64,000 nucleotides of DNA from Candidatus Doudnabacteria bacterium RIFCSPHIGHO2_01_FULL_46_24 (GTDB lineage Bacteria; Patescibacteriota; Doudnabacteria; UBA920; O2-02-FULL-48-8), in NCBI GenBank assembly GCA_001777575.1, contig MFEL01000018.1, positions 72,264 through 136,263 on the forward strand, in the 5' to 3' direction. Numbering within the stretch: the first letter of the stretch is position 1; each line of letters starts with the position of its first letter. The notes under the pieces were generated by a model. The model was given only the letters and a program-made list of their open reading frames with translations, was not told where the DNA came from and searched no databases. A program made the position numbers and the translations under genes. This document shows, in pieces, positions 41,220 to 49,258 of this stretch.

Positions 41220-42344
41220 TCAGCTGATTGCTTCGCGCAGCTTGCTCAGCACCAAGCTTTCGGTTTGGTTCAAGTTTTGGAACGATTCAAACCTGATGGC
41301 CGAGCCCTGAATCTGGGGCTTATATTCCAAAAAGGCCTGCGGCAGATTGACCGGTGAAATTGTCTGGCCGAAAATTTCGACCTTGTCCCCCCGTTCCACC
41401 ATAAAAAAGAAAGTCTTGGCAAAAGACAGCTGCAATGTCATTTCCTTGATAACCATGCCCACGTCTTCGGCCGTGGCTTCGGCCTTGTCAACATCAGAGG
41501 CGACAATCATTGAATAGACCAAAGACAGCTGGGGGTCTTGTTTGAGGCGGGCCAACACCCGGCCCCACAACTTCAGGAATCCCATAGACTTGCTTTTGTA
41601 AAGCCGGCTCATGATCTGCGGCTGGTCCGCGCCGAGGCTGATCAAATTCGAAGCTTTCAAAAAAGCCGCCGGAGTCGTGCGGACATGCTGGAAACTGTTG
41701 GTCTCGGCAATAATGCCGGTCAATAGCGCCGTGGCGATGGATTGGTCGAGAAGCGAACTTTCAAACACGGAGATGAGATCAAGCATAATCTCGGAGTTGG
41801 AAGTGGCAGACAGGTCAATTAAATTGTACGAGCCATAGCTTTCATTTTGGGCGCTGCGGTCAATGTTGATGATCGGGGTTTCAAAAAACAAATCCGAATT
41901 CTGGATATAGAACTCGCCTAAATTTTCGAGGCTGAACACACCGATGCTGACGATTAAGTCAAACGGAAAATTGGAGCTGCGGAAACTGACGTCCTTATCG
42001 CTAAACTGCCCCTTTTTCGGTTTGACATAAATCGACAGCCGTTCCGGTTCCTTTTTGTAGCTCAACTCATCAATCTCCGACGCTTTGGTGGACAAATCAA
42101 TGACAAAACTTTTGGCGATGCTGAGGTGGTCTTTGACCTCCTCAAACCCGGTCAAAAAATCGAATTTGGCGTTGGGGGGACCGGGACTGATTAAGACTAC
42201 CTCTTTTTCCAGTTTGCGCAGGAAAGTCCGCAAAGCCAAAGCCGCCGACAGATCATCACCCGAGGCCTGCGGCGGGGTCAAAATCAAAATACTGTTGGCT
42301 TTATTCAGTTTATCCGCGATGGGATTGAGTTCTTCTGCCTGCAT
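41220..42344 (-). CDS. DHH-family phosphoesterase-like protein (NrnA-like, possibly degenerate)
   Basis: Start trimmed from the track ORF 41220..42644 to the ATG at 42344. ILILTPPQASGDDLSAALAL resembles DHH motifs I-II, but the canonical DHH and GGGH residues were not seen. Confidence 0.4.
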   Translation of the reverse strand: MQAEELNPIADKLNKANSILILTPPQASGDDLSAALALRTFLRKLEKEVVLISPGPPNAKFDFLTGFEEVKDHLSIAKSFVIDLSTKASEIDELSYKKEPERLSIYVKPKKGQFSDKDVSFRSSNFPFDLIVSIGVFSLENLGEFYIQNSDLFFETPIINIDRSAQNESYGSYNLIDLSATSNSEIMLDLISVFESSLLDQSIATALLTGIIAETNSFQHVRTTPAAFLKASNLISLGADQPQIMSRLYKSKSMGFLKLWGRVLARLKQDPQLSLVYSMIVASDVDKAEATAEDVGMVIKEMTLQLSFAKTFFFMVERGDKVEIFGQTISPVNLPQAFLEYKPQIQGSAIRFESFQNLNQTESLVLSKLREAIS

Positions 42345-42377
42345 AAATTCATTAAGAAATCTTAATAATATACAGTG

Positions 42378-42406
42378 TTGGCAAGCCAATGTCAAACTGT
42401 TAAAAT
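42378..42406 (+). promoter_or_regulatory. promoter TTGGCA, 17-bp spacer, TAAAAT for tsaE, embedded in the TTGGC-AA-GCCAA inverted repeat
   Basis: The -10 ends 5 nt before the ATG at 42412, giving a near-leaderless transcript. Confidence 0.45.
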
Positions 42407-42411
42407 AAGCT

Positions 42412-42837
42412 ATGGTCCAAAGCTTTGAAAATCTCACGCTGAAGCAGGTGAAAAAACTGGCAGCGGACTTAAGTACGCAGCTTAATAACAGCAGAGCCAA
42501 GATCGGGCTGGTCGGAAGCTTAGGCAGCGGCAAGACAACTTTTGCCAAACAATTTGCCCACCGCTTAGGCCGGATCAGACTGAAAAGCCCGACGTTTACC
42601 GTAATTGACACGCATAAATTCGGAAAAAAAATTCTGCACCACATCGACTTATACCGCCTCCGCCATTATTCAGAGCTGCGGGCCATCGGATTTGAAGAAC
42701 TGCTTCAACCAAACACCGTGATTTTGATCGAGTGGGCGGATAAATTTAGGCAAGTAGCAAAACAGTGCGGCTTGCTGATTGAATTTAAGTTTACCCCACA
42801 ACACAATAGACGCGATGTCAAAATTACTTTTAAGTAG
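42412..42837 (+). CDS. tsaE: tRNA threonylcarbamoyladenosine biosynthesis ATPase TsaE (YjeE)
   Basis: GSLGSGKTTF P-loop, SPTFTVI, HIDLYRL, and IEWADKF motifs. Confidence 0.8.
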   Translation: MVQSFENLTLKQVKKLAADLSTQLNNSRAKIGLVGSLGSGKTTFAKQFAHRLGRIRLKSPTFTVIDTHKFGKKILHHIDLYRLRHYSELRAIGFEELLQPNTVILIEWADKFRQVAKQCGLLIEFKFTPQHNRRDVKITFK

Positions 42838-43909
42838 CATAATATTCGCCAGTCTTTTGCTGACGGCCCACAAAGCCGCAGCGGGGACAAATGACGCCGT
42901 CAGTATGCGCAACTGGGGGGCTGTTCAAACAGCCAAATTGGTTTTGCTAAACCAAGCCCCGCCAGCGCCACCCCTGCTTGACCCTGAGGAATTGAGTCAA
43001 ATTGAGGCGGTGGTGGCAGAAACCAATCAAAAAAGTGCCTCAGCCAAACTGGTCATCGAAAACGGACGCGCGGTGGAATTTGAGCGGGGCCAAAACGGCC
43101 AAAGCGTAGACGTATACGCGCTTTCTCAGCTGCTTATAAAACAAGCAGGTCTCGCCTTCGTCCCCATGTTCGTTTCCCAGCCAGCAGTTAACCTTGCCGA
43201 CACCAACAGCCTGGGCATTGCGGAACTCGTGGCCGTGGGCGAATCGGATTTTTCCGGCTCGCCCAAAAATCGGATTCACAACATCAAGGTCGGCAGCGCT
43301 AAATACAACGGCATTATCATCCAGCCAAGTCAAGAATTTTCTTTTAATAAATTCCTGGGCGACGTGGATGCGGAAAACGGCTTTTTGCCCGAGCTGGTGA
43401 TTAAGCGCACGGGTGTCGTGCCGGAATTCGGCGGTGGGCTCTGCCAGGTTTCCTCCACCGCGTTCCGGGCCGCCATGAATGCCGGCCTGCCGATTGTGGA
43501 ACGGCGGAACCATTCCTTTGCCGTTAAGTACTATGCCCCGCAAGGCACGGACGCCACTATTTATCCGGGTTCCACCGACCTGCGCTTCACCAATAATCTC
43601 TCCTCCCACCTTCTGATTTGGACACGAATCGAAGGCTATAAATTATACTATGATTTTTACGGAACCAAAGACGACCGGCTGGTTGAATTTGACGGCCCGA
43701 CCCAGTATGATAAAAAGGCGGACGGCTCCATGAAGGCGATCTGGACGAGGCACGTCAGCTTAAACGGCCAACAGAGCGAGCAAATCTTCAAAAGCACTTA
43801 TCTGCCGCCGGCCCTGTTCCATCCGGAAGAGCAGGCCACTACCCCAAACCCGCAAACGCCGCCGGAGCCTGCCGAAACTACACAACCCACACCAAACGAA
43901 CAGCCATGA
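42815..43909 (+). CDS. VanW-family protein with an N-terminal membrane anchor and a Pro/Thr-rich C-terminal tail
   Basis: GGGLCQVSSTAFRAA matches the VanW core. The start was set at the ATG at 42815 (MSKLLLSS...). The track ORF begins at 42779 and overlaps tsaE. Confidence 0.65.
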   Translation: MSKLLLSSIIFASLLLTAHKAAAGTNDAVSMRNWGAVQTAKLVLLNQAPPAPPLLDPEELSQIEAVVAETNQKSASAKLVIENGRAVEFERGQNGQSVDVYALSQLLIKQAGLAFVPMFVSQPAVNLADTNSLGIAELVAVGESDFSGSPKNRIHNIKVGSAKYNGIIIQPSQEFSFNKFLGDVDAENGFLPELVIKRTGVVPEFGGGLCQVSSTAFRAAMNAGLPIVERRNHSFAVKYYAPQGTDATIYPGSTDLRFTNNLSSHLLIWTRIEGYKLYYDFYGTKDDRLVEFDGPTQYDKKADGSMKAIWTRHVSLNGQQSEQIFKSTYLPPALFHPEEQATTPNPQTPPEPAETTQPTPNEQP

Positions 43910-43915
43910 CATTAA

Positions 43916-44989
43916 CTATCGCTCTGGTATGACAGCCGTGCCCGTTCTTTCAAAATACTCCCTATCAAAAACCAACTGAAGCAAATCTTGCTCCAAGCCA
44001 TGGCCATTGCAGTGCGTGAGCATACCCAAATACGATTGGATTGTCTGGATAAAAGATCCTTGACTTAATTGCCCGGCTTCAAATTTATTGCGGGCCAGTG
44101 CTATTTTTCTAAACATCCGCCTTTTAGTCTTATTTCTCAAGACTATATGATGGGGCAGAATTATATAGCCCAGAGAATCAATTCCTTGCCCAAATTTTCT
44201 GATCGATACTTTATCGGGGTGCAACGATAGCTGCAGTTCTTGCTGCAAAAGATGTTGAATGGTAGCGCACTGGTTTATCAGCTCGTGTTTATTCGACGAT
44301 AAAATTATAAAATCGTCAGCGTACCGAAAATAATGCCTGGCATGCAGCCGATGTTTAATAAACTGATCTAGTTCATTCAAATATATGTTGGCAAAAATCT
44401 GCGAGCTTAAATTCCCAATCGGAAGTCCTGTAACTCTCTCTCTCTCTCTTGAAAAATTATCCACAACAAAACTTTTAACAACCTCTTCAATTAGCCACAA
44501 AAAGTGTTTGTCGCTGATTTTATTTTTAATTATCTGCAACAGCTTCTGGTGAGAAACGCTGTAGAAAAACTTGTAGATGTCGCATTTGAGCGCAAATACA
44601 TTCCTGCTATTGTTGCGGCTTACCTTTCTTAAAGCGATTGCCAAATTATTAACAGCCAAATGCGTTCCCTTATCCAAACGGGAAGCATAGGAGTGGTAAA
44701 TAAATTTGGGGTCAAATATCCGATACAGTTCATTAAAAATCAGATGATGAACCAGGCGATCACGAACAGTCGCCTTGCTAATAACCCGGTGTTTCGGATC
44801 CCAAATATGGAAAGTAATATAAGGTCCGTGCCGATAAGTCTGATTCTCAAGTTGTCGGTGAAGTTCAAAAATATTATCTTCCAAGTGCCGCTCAAATTCC
44901 AAGACATCCCTCTTCTTTTGTTTCTCTTTCCTAAATTCGTCCCAGCATAAAAATAAATTATCAATATGCAAGAATTGCCTATTCTCCAT
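43916..44989 (-). CDS. DGR-type reverse transcriptase
   Basis: RT motifs are present, including LPIGNLSSQ (the DGR-specific I/LGxxxSQ form of motif 4) and YADDFIIL (motif 5). The N-terminus (CWDEFRKEKQKKRDV..TYRHGPYITFHIWDPKHRVISKATVRDRLVHH) matches the general DGR RT pattern. Confidence 0.85.
   Translation of the reverse strand: MENRQFLHIDNLFLCWDEFRKEKQKKRDVLEFERHLEDNIFELHRQLENQTYRHGPYITFHIWDPKHRVISKATVRDRLVHHLIFNELYRIFDPKFIYHSYASRLDKGTHLAVNNLAIALRKVSRNNSRNVFALKCDIYKFFYSVSHQKLLQIIKNKISDKHFLWLIEEVVKSFVVDNFSRERERVTGLPIGNLSSQIFANIYLNELDQFIKHRLHARHYFRYADDFIILSSNKHELINQCATIQHLLQQELQLSLHPDKVSIRKFGQGIDSLGYIILPHHIVLRNKTKRRMFRKIALARNKFEAGQLSQGSFIQTIQSYLGMLTHCNGHGLEQDLLQLVFDREYFERTGTAVIPER
44434..44449. 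repeat. (CT)8 dinucleotide simple-sequence repeat inside the RT coding sequence (encodes R-E-R-E-R on the minus strand)
   Basis: Read directly and cross-checked against the protein FSRERERVTG. Confidence 0.8.
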
Positions 44990-45304
44990 AAATTAACCGA
45001 ATTTTATAAAACATTTTATCTCTATCTCGCCTCTTTTCCTCAAAAGGATAAATATGCCCTTGGCGCCAAATGCGAAGGCTATATTATTTCAACTCTTGAA
45101 TTATTATTGGCAGCGGAATACGCCAGCAAAAATCAAAGGCTGCAACTAATACAGCAGGCTTCCGTCAAATTCGATATGCTTAAGTCTTTTATCCGTATCG
45201 CCAAGGAGCTGAAAATTCTGGATCAGAAAAAATACATCCGCCTGGAAGCGGAATTACAAGAGATCGGCCGCCAGCTGGGAGGCTGGCAGCGATCTTTGAG
45301 CTAA
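44966..45304 (+). CDS. Avd-like accessory variability determinant (four-helix-bundle protein)
   Basis: 112-aa ORF. Its C-terminus (..EIGRQLGGWQRSL) and the SFPQKDKYALGAK..ASKNQ segment resemble the general Avd/four-helix-bundle family pattern. The first 24 nt are shared with the RT start on the other strand. Confidence 0.75.
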   Translation: MQELPILHKLTEFYKTFYLYLASFPQKDKYALGAKCEGYIISTLELLLAAEYASKNQRLQLIQQASVKFDMLKSFIRIAKELKILDQKKYIRLEAELQEIGRQLGGWQRSLS

Positions 45305-45315
45305 AGCATAGACGC

Positions 45316-45437
45316 AACCCGAGGAGGCACACGCCGCCGGAGTAGTTGTCGTTGGCATTCAGATTCCTGTTGTCGAACTTCAACTTGTCGTCGTTGGCCT
45401 TGAAGTAGAGCGAGTGCTGCTTCGACTGCCAGAATTT
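45316..45437 (-). repeat. DGR template repeat (TR)
   Basis: Aligns with 45706-45827 at an offset of 390 nt. Plus-strand T (minus-strand A) in the TR corresponds to A, C or G in the VR at about 23 positions. There is one non-A difference (TR 45396, G versus A). Confidence 0.85.
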
Positions 45438-45621
45438 GTCTTTTTCCTTCCACTAGCACCGGAGAATAATTACTTATCCTCCTGAATTTCATTTCGTCCG
45501 CAATGGACGTTGAAAAAAGACAAGTAGTGTCTATACTTTTTGCATGTATAGGATTTCAGCGGCTTAAGTCCGTAAACTTAAGCGCATTAACCTACTTTCA
45601 AGAATAATTTTATAACAAAAG

Positions 45622-45672
45622 AAAAACGGGAGCAATCAAGGACTGCTCCCGTCCGGACTCCTCCGAGAGTCC
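45622..45672 (-). terminator. two hairpins downstream of the target gene and VR: GGACTC-ctccga-GAGTCC, and GGGAGCA-atcaaggac-TGCTCCC followed by a T-run on the minus strand
   Basis: Read directly. The second has terminator character. Hairpins immediately 3-prime of the VR are a known DGR feature. Confidence 0.5.
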
Positions 45673-45704
45673 AAAACCCAAAACCCGAGAAACCGACGAA
45701 TGCA

Positions 45705-46646
45705 CTACCCGAGGAGGCACACGCCGCCGGAGTAGTTGTCGTAGGCACACAGATCCCCGCAGCCGAACCACAACCGGTCGCCGAAAGCCCTGAAGTAGAG
45801 CGAGTGCTGCCCCGACTGCCAGAGCACTGCGGCACAGTCCAAACCCGGCGTCTGGTAATCGCGCGCCAGCACGTCTGGGTAGGTGGTCAGCGCTGCTGCC
45901 GGCTCGATGACCCCGCACAGCAACACGTCCGCAGGCAGCGTAGCCATCTGCTCCCGATCTGCCGGGATCGAAAATCCCTGCAGGCAGTTCGGGGAATAGC
46001 CCAGCACAACCGAACCTTCGGCCAGCTTGCGCAGCAGGCGGTTGTGGCTTTGGGCCACGACCTTGACCTGCTTGGCCAGTTCCCCTTCGCGGTAGTTCTT
46101 GAAGCTGCGCCCGGGAAATTGCTGCTCGTAAGCCCGCTTGACCCCGGCCAGCAGCTTGTCGTCGGTAAACTGGCCTAGATCGCCAATCTGCATTTTCGGC
46201 AACGCCAACGGCAACACCATGCCATGAGTAGGCAGGTTGGCCATGAGCGGATCAGTCGCGAGACGGCAGAGAATCGCCGCGAACCGCGCTTCGAACTCGT
46301 CAGCTGACATGAACGCGCTGCCGCCGAAGTGCTCCACGAACCGCTCGAGACGCGCCGCAAAGTCCACTTTCGGCTGGTCGAGGTAGAACGACCGGTTCGC
46401 ATCCACAGCCTTGGCCTTCATGCCTTGGGGTGGGATGCGACGGCCGTTGCTGTCGAACAGCGGTTTGATCGGCTCTTCCAGCACGAACTCGCCCGATTCG
46501 TTTTCCGTGTCTGGCTTGGTAATCTTGAAAACGAGCCTGCCGCTCTTCACGGCTAACGCGTTCTCATTACCGCCAAGGTTGCTGATGAGCGAGCGGTAGT
46601 CGTTCCCGCTCCAAGGCCCCAACGTTTCCCATTCTATGAGTTTCAT
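45705..46646 (-). CDS. DGR target (variable) protein; the VR occupies the last 40 codons or so
   Basis: 313-aa ORF. The C-terminus (..AYDNYSGGVCLLG) is encoded by the VR. The TR-encoded equivalent reads ..NANDNYSGGVCLLG, with Asn (AAC) codons at the varied positions. GGAGGA lies upstream of the ATG. No signal peptide is evident. Confidence 0.75.
   Translation of the reverse strand: MKLIEWETLGPWSGNDYRSLISNLGGNENALAVKSGRLVFKITKPDTENESGEFVLEEPIKPLFDSNGRRIPPQGMKAKAVDANRSFYLDQPKVDFAARLERFVEHFGGSAFMSADEFEARFAAILCRLATDPLMANLPTHGMVLPLALPKMQIGDLGQFTDDKLLAGVKRAYEQQFPGRSFKNYREGELAKQVKVVAQSHNRLLRKLAEGSVVLGYSPNCLQGFSIPADREQMATLPADVLLCGVIEPAAALTTYPDVLARDYQTPGLDCAAVLWQSGQHSLYFRAFGDRLWFGCGDLCAYDNYSGGVCLLG
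45706..45827 (-). repeat. DGR variable repeat (VR) at the 3-prime end of the target gene
   Basis: See the TR entry. Confidence 0.85.
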
Positions 46647-46768
46647 ATTTCCTCCTTCAGGCTAACTTGCCCGAAGAACATTTGCCCCTTATCCCGAGGC
46701 CCAGGGTCCGAGTTCTGTCGGAGCCGCAGTTGTCCCCCTGATTGCAGGACATCGTATCCTAGCCATTT

Positions 46769-46798
46769 TTGACGAATTTGTCAAGGCTGGGTTACAAT
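46769..46798 (+). promoter_or_regulatory. promoter TTGACG, 18-bp spacer, TACAAT overlapping the palindrome TTGACGAATTTGTCAA, upstream of leader module copy 2
   Basis: -35 at 46769-74 and -10 at 46793-98. The motif AATTTGTCAAG is shared with copy 1. Confidence 0.45.
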
Positions 46799-46819
46799 AC
46801 CAATAAGTATTCATCAACC

Positions 46820-46946
46820 ATGAATCCCGTTAGAAATAGGCCAACCTCTTCCTTTAATATAAGCTCGTTGTTTTATCAAAATTTAAGCAAAATTAATTAT
46901 CATCGCGCTTTGTTTCCGTTAAGCGCGGCTGATTTCTAACGGGATG
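46820..46946 (+). promoter_or_regulatory. leader module copy 2: uORF ATGAATCCCGTTAGAAAT... (39 aa, stop TAA inside the 3-prime arm) plus the inverted complement ATTTCTAACGGGATG overlapping the aminopeptidase start codon
   Basis: 5-prime arm at 46820-46837, 3-prime arm at 46932-46946, with a 14-nt perfect inverted repeat ATCCCGTTAGAAAT. Confidence 0.5.
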
Positions 46947-48188
46947 AAAAAAAATTACCAACCGCCCCAAATCATTCTTGACCGCTACGCCAAAGTTTTG
47001 GTGCGGTTTGCGCTGGGCGGCGGCAAGGGTATCAAAAAAGGCGATGTCGTGCGCGTTTCCAGCAGCGAATCCGGGCGCCAGCTGTATTTAGCCGTGTGCA
47101 ACGCCGTGATTGACGAAGGCGGCCACGTCCTGCCGCATTATTCGCCGGATGACGAACAAGGCGATAAGCGCCGCAACGAAAGCTTTACCCGATACTTCTA
47201 TGAACACGCGCAGGACCACCAGATGGATCACTTCCCGCATAAATATCTCAAGGGCTTGGTCGAGCAGATGGATCATTCAATTTTTATTCTGGCTGATGCC
47301 GACCCGCATGCGCTCAAAGGAGTCAATCCTAAAAAAATTATGCGCCGCGGCGTGGCCTTAAAGCCGTTCATGGACTGGCGGCACAAAAAAGAGTGGCAGG
47401 GCAGATTTACCTGGACCATTGCGCTTTATGGCACGCCGGCCATGGCCGCCGAAGCCGGCCTTTCCCCGAAAGCGTATTGGAACCAAATAATCAAGGCCTG
47501 CTTTCTTGACCAGAAAGATCCAATTGCGAAATGGAAAGATGTTTACCGGAAATTGGAACACTATCGCCGAGCGTTAAATCGGCTCTCGCCCCGAATTGAC
47601 CGGCTCCATGTTGTCGGGCCGGATGTCAATCTTTGGATCAAACCGGGCGAGAAAAGGCTGTGGCTGGGCGGCAGCGGCCGCAACATTCCCAGTTTTGAAC
47701 TGTTCACTTCTCCAGACTGGCGCGGCACTAAAGGTTGGATTCGGTTCAACCAGCCGCTTTATCGTTACGGCAGTAAGGTCACCGGCATTCAACTTTGGTT
47801 TGAAAACGGCCAGGTTATCAAAAGCCAGGCCAGAACAGGCGAAAAGCTGCTGAAAGAAATGATTGCCACGCCTGGCGCCAATAAGGTTGGAGAGTTCTCC
47901 TTAACCGACCGCCGCTTCAGCCGCATCACCAAGTTCATGGCCGAAACGCTGTTTGACGAAAACATGGGCGGGCCCCACGGCAACACCCACATCGCCCTGG
48001 GCATGTCTTACCGCGATACGTTCGACGGCAACGCCGCCAAACTTTCCAAAAAACAAGCCGAGGCCCTGGGGTTCAACGACTCGTCTGTCCATACCGACAT
48101 CATCTCCACCGCGCCCCGCACGGTCACGGCGCATCTGAAAAACGGCCAAGAAAAAATCATCTACAACCGCGGTCAGTTTGTCATCTAA
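46944..48188 (+). CDS. aminopeptidase, M29 family (AmpS/PepS-like)
   Basis: 414-aa ORF. Its length and conserved segments (GANKVGEFSLTD, HGNTHIALG, VHTDII) fit the M29 thermophilic metalloprotease family. Confidence 0.7.
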   Translation: MKKNYQPPQIILDRYAKVLVRFALGGGKGIKKGDVVRVSSSESGRQLYLAVCNAVIDEGGHVLPHYSPDDEQGDKRRNESFTRYFYEHAQDHQMDHFPHKYLKGLVEQMDHSIFILADADPHALKGVNPKKIMRRGVALKPFMDWRHKKEWQGRFTWTIALYGTPAMAAEAGLSPKAYWNQIIKACFLDQKDPIAKWKDVYRKLEHYRRALNRLSPRIDRLHVVGPDVNLWIKPGEKRLWLGGSGRNIPSFELFTSPDWRGTKGWIRFNQPLYRYGSKVTGIQLWFENGQVIKSQARTGEKLLKEMIATPGANKVGEFSLTDRRFSRITKFMAETLFDENMGGPHGNTHIALGMSYRDTFDGNAAKLSKKQAEALGFNDSSVHTDIISTAPRTVTAHLKNGQEKIIYNRGQFVI

Positions 48189-48220
48189 GCCGCATGCGAT
48201 GGTCATGCTATACTTAAGAC

Positions 48221-49258
48221 ATGATTCAGACCAACGCGGATGAAATAGACATTGTCAATCCATCACCCAAAAAAAACGAGGGGTTTTTCGAAGCAACCCT
48301 CCGGCCCCAAACCCTCGGAGAGTATGTCGGCCAGGGCAAAATCAAAGACAATCTGAAAATTTTCATTGACGCGGCGCAAAAAAGAAAAGAGGTCCTGGAG
48401 CATATCCTGCTCTACGGCCCGCCGGGCTTGGGCAAAACCACGCTCGCCCACATCATTGCCCGCGAAAGCGGAGTCTCGATCAAGGTCACTTCCGGCCCGG
48501 CCATCGAAAAAAGCGGCGACTTGGCTTCCCTGCTGACCGCGCTGGAGCCCAATGACGTTTTGTTCATTGACGAAATCCACCGCCTGCCCAAAGCGGTGGA
48601 GGAAATTCTCTACCCGGCCATGGAAGATTATTGCCTGGATATTGTCTTGGGCAAAGGCGCCGGAGCCAAAGCCTTGCGCTTGGATTTGCCGAAATTCACT
48701 TTAATCGGCGCCACCACGCGCATCGGGCTGATTTCCGCACCCCTTCGCGACCGTTTCGGTTCCACTTACCGGCTCGACTATTATGAAGAAAATGAAATCG
48801 AGCAAATCATCGAACGGGCCGCGCACATTCTGAAAATCAAGATTGACCGCGGCGGCAAACAAGAAATCGCCAAGCGCAGCCGCCGCACCCCCCGCATCGC
48901 CAACCGGCTCTTAAAGCGCGTGCGCGACTTTGCCCAAGTCAAGGCGTCGGGCAAAATCACTGGCGACATTGCCCATGACGCGCTCAACATGCTGGAAGTG
49001 GACAGTCTGGGCTTGGATGCCAATGACCGCCGCCTCCTTTCCGCTTTGATCGAAAAATTCAGCGGGGGGCCAGTCGGGCTTTCCTCCCTAGCCGCAGCCA
49101 CCTCAGAGGAGCAGGAGACTTTAGAAGACGTCTATGAGCCATTCTTGATCCGCATCGGATTTCTAGCCCGCACGCCCAAAGGGCGCATCGCCACCCCTGC
49201 GGCCTACGAGCATCTGAGGGTATCTATGAAACAAGCCAAAGGGCAAACACTACTATAA
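48221..49258 (+). CDS. ruvB: Holliday junction DNA helicase RuvB
   Basis: [11 protein letters not shown] Walker [11 protein letters not shown], sensor motifs, and a winged-helix C-terminus. Confidence 0.95.

Follow-up and report, generated by a model that had tools for sequence, protein, structure and literature searches.

Organization of the cassette and the adenine signature of its repeats

The window, that is the whole analyzed stretch of 64,000 nucleotides (nt) from contig MFEL01000018.1 of Candidatus Doudnabacteria bacterium RIFCSPHIGHO2_01_FULL_46_24, contains a compact cassette which is very probably a chromosomal diversity-generating retroelement (DGR) of a lineage specific for the Candidate Phyla Radiation (CPR), with the architecture known as B3. 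Its parts are a target gene encoding the variable protein and ending in a variable repeat (VR), a template repeat (TR), the gene avd (accessory variability determinant) and a reverse transcriptase (RT) gene. Read along the minus strand, the cassette starts with a sigma-70-like promoter candidate of the target gene (46784–46756; TTGACA-17-TAGGAT, found by a consensus scan), followed by a ribosome-binding site (GGAGG within 46644–46658) and the target open reading frame (ORF) of 313 amino acids (45705–46646), of which the final 117 nt constitute VR (45707–45823) and encode the last 38 residues. Downstream of these lie the intrinsic terminator of the target gene, located between VR and TR (45650–45616; a 7-bp GC stem with a U-run, the scan match being 45654–45624), approximately 180 nt of AT-rich non-coding DNA, TR (45317–45433; 117 nt with 30 adenines, identified by a repeat search), a spacer, avd (44966–45304; 112 amino acids) and the RT gene (43916–44989; 357 amino acids counted from the first ATG, with the start codon placed 6 or 29 codons downstream in other annotations). 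The avd gene is encoded on the plus strand, opposite to RT, TR and target. A terminator-like hairpin with a U-run, also found by the consensus scan, is situated within antisense avd on the TR-sense minus strand (45227–45252) and is a possible 3' end of the TR RNA. The start of avd and the longest RT ORF overlap head-to-head by 24 nt (44966–44989), leaving essentially no intergenic promoter space between these divergent genes; the same overlap is seen in the related locus L010, and the RT-avd gap in other related loci is 30–60 nt.

TR and VR are the sole direct repeat at positions 42000–49000 and the sole TR-like copy in the whole 64-kb window. They differ at 19 of 117 nt, and at 18 of these 19 mismatches TR has an A on the coding (minus) strand. 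Given 30 adenines in 117 nt, the probability of at least 18 of 19 mismatches falling on A is 3.3e-10 (binomial; Fisher P = 2e-12), and the divergence of the two repeats is adenine-specific. The 30 TR adenines occupy only first or second positions of codons, and the codons include AAC and AAT (four and two times, respectively), AAG (four) and GAC (four); AAC and AAT, the usual TR codons, cannot turn into stop codons. The mismatches cause 12 amino-acid differences over 38 codons, and a full A-to-N mutagenesis of TR would give 20 recodable codons and about 2.6e17 possible proteins. The 3' ends of the repeats are identical over 44 nt. Their last 28 nt (VR 45707–45734, TR 45317–45344) have only one adenine, which is their second nucleotide (TACTCC...), and no A in the remaining 26 nt; this shared A-free GC-rich end resembles in sequence the initiation of mutagenic homing site (IMH) in VR and its counterpart IMH* in TR. 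The divergence between TR and VR begins at the stop codon, which is TAG in VR and TTG in TR.

The same partition into variable and constant positions is seen in the target family. We compared the last 38 columns of the family alignment with the codons of the window TR, a column being called variable if it had no majority residue. The A-containing codons correspond to 16 variable and 4 conserved columns, and the A-free codons to 2 variable and 16 conserved ones (P = 2e-5). The A-free codons encode the scaffold of the target, SL.F.A.D..L.F....L.A.G.YSGGL..LG.

The RT contains the motifs IGNLSSQ (residues 191–197; 44399–44419) and YADD (residues 223–226; 44312–44323), which align with IGSLTSQ and YMDD of bRT, the RT of phage BPP-1. 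It matches the Pfam family RVT_1 (2.7e-24) and PHROG_1423 (5e-110), and its best relative with a solved structure is bRT (8ub7, E 1.8e-36), a match 17 orders of magnitude better than those to RTs of group II introns or retrons (about 1e-19). Avd passes the Pfam model bAvd (72.2 bits, cutoff 40) and matches PHROG_3206, annotated as 'Avd protein of DGR' (8e-18). The sequence-only reading had described a complete DGR comprising RT, Avd, TR and a target with a C-terminal VR, an RT with the DGR-specific IGxxxSQ motif and YADD, and repeats differing almost only at template adenines. All four parts are indeed present with these properties and at the positions given there, and the completeness of the element is borne out by bRT as the best RT relative, by the bAvd match and by the adenine-specific mismatches. 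The comparison of RT and Avd with profile models, which that reading had suggested, gave the same picture, with bAvd passed and models of group II and retron RTs far below their cutoffs.

Gene order, relatives and activity of the element

Architecture B3, in which TR and RT are separated by an avd of reverse orientation, TR-(avd)-RT, accounts for 90% of CPR DGRs (Wu et al. 2018, PMC5758913). The order in the window fits it: TR is followed by the reversed avd and RT, and the target is located upstream on the strand of TR and RT. Related loci were gathered with an alignment of 15 target sequences, which yielded 39 genome loci with a target homolog. In 19 of them, the target gene is followed by TR, an inverted avd and RT just as in the window, orientation included, and this layout is thus conserved across the lineage. 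Since it is found both in 90% of CPR DGRs and in 19 of the 39 related loci, the arrangement, initially taken for an unusual one, is the rule for the lineage and not an oddity. A TR/VR pair was detectable in 15 of the 19 loci, with mismatches mostly or only at TR adenines: all mismatches are of this kind in L011 (16/16), L017 (24/24), L018 (23/23), L032 (19/19) and L037 (13/13), and the weakest signature is that of L023 (12/18).

DGRs restricted to Patescibacteria form clade 2 of Roux et al. 2021 (PMC8144416), and their targets typically have no transmembrane or known domains. Judged by its host and target type, the element probably belongs to this clade, and its VR may represent an unnamed class among the 'UVR' ones of Wu et al. 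Proteins of Candidatus Doudnabacteria bacterium RIFCSPHIGHO2_12_FULL match the target with 100% identity, in agreement with the CPR origin that had been guessed from the sequence, and a phage origin is not supported, since no relative of the target was found in IMG/VR. The element is like other DGRs of CPR/Patescibacteria in the host group, gene order, inverted avd, target without transmembrane or known domains and chromosomal location, and nothing essential sets it apart from them. It is an ordinary DGR for this host group, with a target of a known type, namely a CPR target without recognizable domains. The element is probably present in published DGR catalogues, and its finding by itself adds little, because these genomes were surveyed for DGRs years ago. 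The first survey of CPR DGRs was reportedly that of Paul et al. 2017 (Nat Microbiol 2:17045).

With the prototype, the DGR of phage BPP-1 (mtd-avd-TR-brt), the element shares Avd, an RT with IGxxxSQ and YxDD motifs, adenine-specific divergence between TR and VR, an A-free GC-rich IMH-like end and the location of VR at the C-terminus of a C-type-lectin-type fold, which in the window is a predicted one. Unlike in BPP-1, the avd gene has an inverted orientation and is placed between TR and RT, the IMH-like and IMH*-like ends share 44 identical nt, and the element resides in a cell instead of a phage, with a target other than a tail fibre.

Two groups of relatives lack a complete cassette. Locus L036 (2913–5176), in which an RT and a truncated avd accompany a target homolog but TR and the leader RNA described below are missing, seems to be a decayed DGR from this lineage. 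About 15 target homologs (L009, L012, L019, L022, L024, L025, L028, L031, L035, L038, L039, L041, L042, L044 and L045) are followed by neither RT nor avd in the next 8 kb; a DGR located elsewhere could act on them in trans, or they could be former targets. The closest relative of the window target, that of L009 (77% identity), is one of them and is situated between uvrC and uvrA.

Two other explanations of the locus have to be weighed against that of a complete DGR of the CPR lineage. One of them, an RT of different origin, whether from a group II intron, a retron or a DRT/UG defence system, next to a repeat that is an ordinary duplication, is effectively refuted. It could be based on the group II RT/maturase being the top-scoring NCBIfam model and on the generic RT/DRT matches given by PADLOC; however, the former is explained by NCBIfam having no DGR RT model, and every such model is far under its curated cutoff (TIGR04416 for group II, 146 of 300 bits; retron St85, 62 of 235; Drt3a, 66 of 200; others lower). 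Moreover, bRT is by far the best solved relative, an Avd gene adjoins the RT, the mismatches are adenine-specific, and the same TR/VR signature appears again in 15 related loci. The other explanation, a DGR that is structurally intact but silent or very rarely firing, so that the TR/VR differences are due to past homing and VR is effectively fixed, seems unlikely to us, although it has more in its favor. VR is identical in every full-length copy from the 90% protein cluster, except for one non-adenine difference in a raw-read assembly; four loci agree over 3.5 kb with 100% identity, and a fifth, which is shorter, over 1.3 kb; and no ongoing VR diversification is visible in the consensus contigs of the five loci and in the 90% cluster, which probably come from one aquifer population. 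The single TR/VR mismatch outside the adenines, the decayed relative L036 and the approximately 15 homologs without an RT within 8 kb point in the same direction. On the other hand, this test of VR variation is weak, because minority variants are hidden in consensus assemblies and the assemblies probably do not represent independent populations. RT, Avd, TR, leader and IMH are all intact, and substitutions at 18 of the 30 adenines compared with one other change in 117 nt argue for homing that is recent relative to background mutation.

The element may be active at present. The identity of VR and of its surroundings between copies weighs against the reading of the locus as a DGR of the CPR lineage that diversifies its target, and so do several further observations: the remaining TR/VR mismatch is a synonymous C-to-T change (GCC to GCT) outside the adenines; adenine mutagenesis of the four AAG codons of TR can yield the stop codon TAG; Avd misses the cutoff of the NCBIfam model DivGenRetAVD by 5 bits (75 bits, cutoff 80); an intrinsic terminator separates VR from TR; and the consensus scan revealed no promoter for the TR RNA. 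A search of a metagenome collection with the VR-allele pattern (N at TR-adenine positions), and then with IMH alone, gave no match, not even to the known allele, the organism being absent from the collection; the window itself is matched by this pattern. L008, a Logan contig of this locus, ends at position 2031, exactly at the last VR base, which is a break of the kind expected from the identical 44-nt end of TR and VR or from read-level heterogeneity.

A structured leader RNA adjoining the template repeat

Alignment of the 175 nt upstream of TR from 16 loci revealed a block whose conservation is much stronger than that of the proteins (40–60% identity). It corresponds to a structured leader RNA of about 120 nt (45434–45551, minus strand), recognized by its conservation, covariation and a sub-threshold match to the Rfam family RT-16, and directly abutting the 5' end of TR. 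The leader is a three-helix structure formed by the closing stem P1 (45512–45523 with 45436–45447), which ends 2–3 nt before TR, the hairpin P2 (45495–45509) and the hairpin P3 with a GUAA loop (45461–45482); its conserved single strands are UAC, AAUAAAAUUCA and GGUG. In addition, a long-range helix is formed by 9 nt just 5' of the UAC linker (45527–45535, minus strand; consensus UAGACAC) and a strand located immediately 3' of TR (45307–45315, minus strand; GCGUCUAUG, family consensus GUGUCUA).

The structure of the leader is demonstrated by covariation. In a MAFFT alignment of 12 loci, 89.4% of cells are paired, compared to 46–59% with slid partners; 18 of 32 pairs show compensatory double changes, and none of 500 shuffles reached any of the five measures used. 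P1 is paired in 97% of cells, with seven compensatory pairs, and the long-range helix in 84%, with four of its nine pairs being compensatory (for example, AGGCAC/GUGCCU in L020). A covariance model built from nine loci produced exactly 16 matches in 529 kb, one per TR-bearing locus, all of them abutting TR on its sense strand; seven of the 16 are in loci outside model building. The model found no match in this sequence set in target homologs without an adjacent RT, nor in L036. In the covariance-model alignment 94.9% of cells are paired and 18 of 23 pairs are compensatory, values which lean toward the structure, as this alignment is fitted to the model.

Rfam family RT-16 (RF03019) aligns over its full length with positions 45551–45430 at 30.4 bits and with the homologous site of L029 at 32.4 bits, the gathering score being 50, which is reached in none of nine related loci. 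In both full-length alignments the closing stem and the unpaired segments CUAC, AUAAAAU.CAG and GGUG are shared with RT-16, whereas one inner stem of the Rfam model is replaced by a different hairpin. With such scores, we treat the leader as a distant relative of RT-16 and not as a member. RT-16 is among 19 RT-associated candidate RNAs, of which only RT-10, the BPP-1 spacer RNA, was tied to a DGR (Weinberg et al. 2017, PMC5737381). In the literature searched we found neither a later assignment of a function to RT-16 nor a description of a role for a structured RNA preceding TR in CPR DGRs, and the CPR DGR literature examined does not mention the structured leader, the long-range helix or the YTTGG array and GC island of the target gene considered below.

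The region 3' of TR is organized differently from that of BPP-1. RT-10 (RF03022) has no match at E <= 10 in 44900–45750, where the corresponding space is occupied by antisense avd; instead of an RT-10/Sp (spacer) RNA 3' of TR, the element has a conserved structured RNA 5' of it. A BPP-1-like structured RNA 3' of TR was considered as a candidate and rejected, as only a hairpin or terminator and then antisense avd are found there. In related loci the flank motif is followed, 8–20 nt further, by a strong hairpin and then by antisense avd, and this hairpin has the appearance of a terminator, either bidirectional or belonging to avd. TR and avd are only 12 nt apart in the window (45305–45316), and the intergenic hairpin present in all related loci has been lost. 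Its place is taken by a 14-bp hairpin predicted by minimum free energy folds within the last avd codons (IGRQLGGWQRS; 45261–45295); the corresponding avd codons of the relatives do not form it. Next to it comes the terminator-like hairpin at 45252–45227.

These features can be combined into a mechanism. TR would be transcribed on the minus strand within a structured RNA consisting, from 5' to 3', of the first long-range strand, the three-helix leader of about 120 nt, the 117-nt TR, the second long-range strand and a hairpin, this being the presumed extent of the transcript. The leader would serve as a scaffold binding RT and Avd 5' of the template. RT with Avd would copy TR to cDNA from a presumed priming site, misincorporating opposite the 30 template adenines, and the cDNA would replace VR at the 3' end of the target gene, guided by the A-free GC-rich end common to both repeats. 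Up to 20 codons could be recoded in this way (about 2.6e17 proteins), on a C-terminal domain that appears to be C-type-lectin-like. We tentatively propose that in CPR DGRs of the TR-(avd)-RT type the RNA which recruits RT and Avd and primes synthesis is permuted relative to BPP-1: an RT-16-like leader would precede the template, the long-range helix would close the unit, and the invariant UAC linker (45524–45526) would be brought near the template start in a retron-like geometry. By analogy, the closing helix would take the part of the upstream:Sp 'cPRT stop' duplex of BPP-1 (bioRxiv 10.1101/2023.10.23.563531), with a geometry resembling retron a1/a2. The likeness to retron msr-msd is one of topology only, as inverted repeats close a structured RNA together with the template, and the 3' end of the template lies beside the closing helix; the RT in the window is of the DGR type, so this is an analogy and not membership.

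The leader could also be a 5' untranslated region or a regulatory element, controlling for instance read-through into antisense avd and RT, with the long-range complementarity being incidental to the avd terminator region. No experiment ties RT-16-type RNAs to DGRs (PMC5737381), and the hairpin 3' of TR resembles a bidirectional or avd terminator, both of which would agree with such a regulatory role. We nevertheless consider it rather doubtful: the RNA abuts TR on its sense strand in all 16 TR-bearing loci and is absent elsewhere in 529 kb, including the RT-less homologs and L036, the long-range helix has compensatory changes, such as those in L020, and RT-10 is missing, with antisense avd filling the space 3' of TR.

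The leader attached to TR and the long-range helix are the features of main interest for specialists. A covariation-supported RNA is located at every TR of a CPR lineage on the opposite side of the template compared to Sp of BPP-1, the only mechanistically understood DGR RNA, and suggests a function for the orphan Rfam family RT-16. If the permuted arrangement proposed above is true, it represents a different solution for priming within DGRs and provides RT-16 with that function. The leader, TR and the 9-nt flank together constitute a small construct in which priming could be probed in the largest environmental DGR clade.

The target protein, its family and the composition of its gene

The target has no match in Pfam, NCBIfam, PHROGs, PADLOC or PDB sequences. 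The sequence-only reading, according to which it matches nothing, was right as far as curated families are concerned, but the protein is a member of a large CPR family, with 69 matches after clustering at 90% and 473 representatives after clustering at 50% (E <= 0.001). Nearly all members are about 300 amino acids long, and every match with a taxonomic name belongs to Patescibacteria; the family is CPR-restricted and has no Pfam model. A Pfam scan of 42 family members and 10 longer ones revealed nothing except TIR/SEFIR domains in two. As had been noted for this 313-residue protein, there is no signal peptide: hydropathy shows neither an N-terminal hydrophobic segment (mean of –0.6 for residues 1–30) nor a membrane-spanning one, the peak being 1.49 at residue 235 (19-residue window). 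The target presumably works as a ligand-binding protein inside the cytoplasm.

An AlphaFold model based on an alignment of 42 sequences is a confident one, with a pLDDT of 93.2 and a pTM of 0.86. Its C-terminal part superposes on TvpA (2y3c), Mtd (1yu0), TaqVP (5vf4) and other C-type-lectin folds, that is, on DGR variable proteins with C-type-lectin/FGE-type folds, and VR encodes the last strands and loops of this part. A C-type-lectin or Ig-like fold had been suggested as something to look for at the C-terminus; according to the model, it is probably a distant, divergent C-type-lectin fold. A Foldseek comparison of the model with PDB gave no significant result, the family alignment, used as a profile against PDB sequences, gave only a match at the level of chance (E 0.19), and the N-terminal 190 amino acids have no match among solved structures. 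Roux et al. 2021 expected divergent C-type-lectin folds to be hidden in unannotated CPR targets, and the model supports this; it also reveals an N-terminal domain without a known relative.

In two distant homologs (P0068 and P0069) a TIR/SEFIR domain replaces the N-terminal residues, about 100 in number. A TIR/SEFIR homolog is encoded in L048 (240–1382) next to another TIR-like gene, with no TR or RT on this 2.6-kb contig. These homologs, one of them beside a TIR-like gene, hint at a role of the shared domain in intracellular sensing.

Directly after the stop codon, the target gene is followed by an array of 6–7 YTTGG/YTCGG motifs with 7–8 nt spacing (45651–45706, minus strand), which includes a 6-bp hairpin (45655–45672) and occupies the place where BPP-1 has a GC-rich cruciform directly after IMH. 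The array is a family-wide feature: 6–8 motifs spaced by 7–8 nt and then a terminator are found in 19 aligned loci. The array and the end CTCGGG-TAG-TG are also kept in many of the homologs lacking an RT in the neighbouring 8 kb, and such homologs may be targets served in trans.

The target gene is an island of high GC content (0.61; 0.79 at third codon positions, GC3), compared to 0.40–0.41 in RT and avd and 0.50 overall in the window. The GC content of the target gene exceeds that of its surroundings by more than 5 percentage points in 29 of 31 related loci, by 14.6 points on average, with GC3 of up to 0.97, whereas RT and avd are at or below the host GC content. Compared with host coding strands, target genes have less A (–9.6 points) and T (–4.0) and more C (+8.1) and G (+5.6). 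Adenine-specific depletion as a simple cause fits only in part, since T is also decreased, and L032 and L037 show no shift in composition although their DGR loci look active. This adenine-poor GC island, present in 29 of the 31 loci compared, is a further feature of the family that could matter. The YTTGG array and the adenine-poor composition might be further parts of the target recognition of this lineage.

The genes flanking the cassette in the window are housekeeping ones, tsaE, a VanW-like gene, an M29 aminopeptidase gene and ruvB. Among the 39 loci, only L027 shares a flanking gene with the window (ruvB next to the target; L027 4222–5226), so the DGR cassette is found in differing contexts across genomes. 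In L011 (10782–11244), about 460 nt separate the end of the DGR RT from a 16S rRNA gene. Finally, in L013 (2493–2590) a TR-type flank composed of TGTCT, a hairpin and antisense avd directly follows the target stop codon, which is probably the result of an assembly collapse between VR and TR on this 3.4-kb contig.

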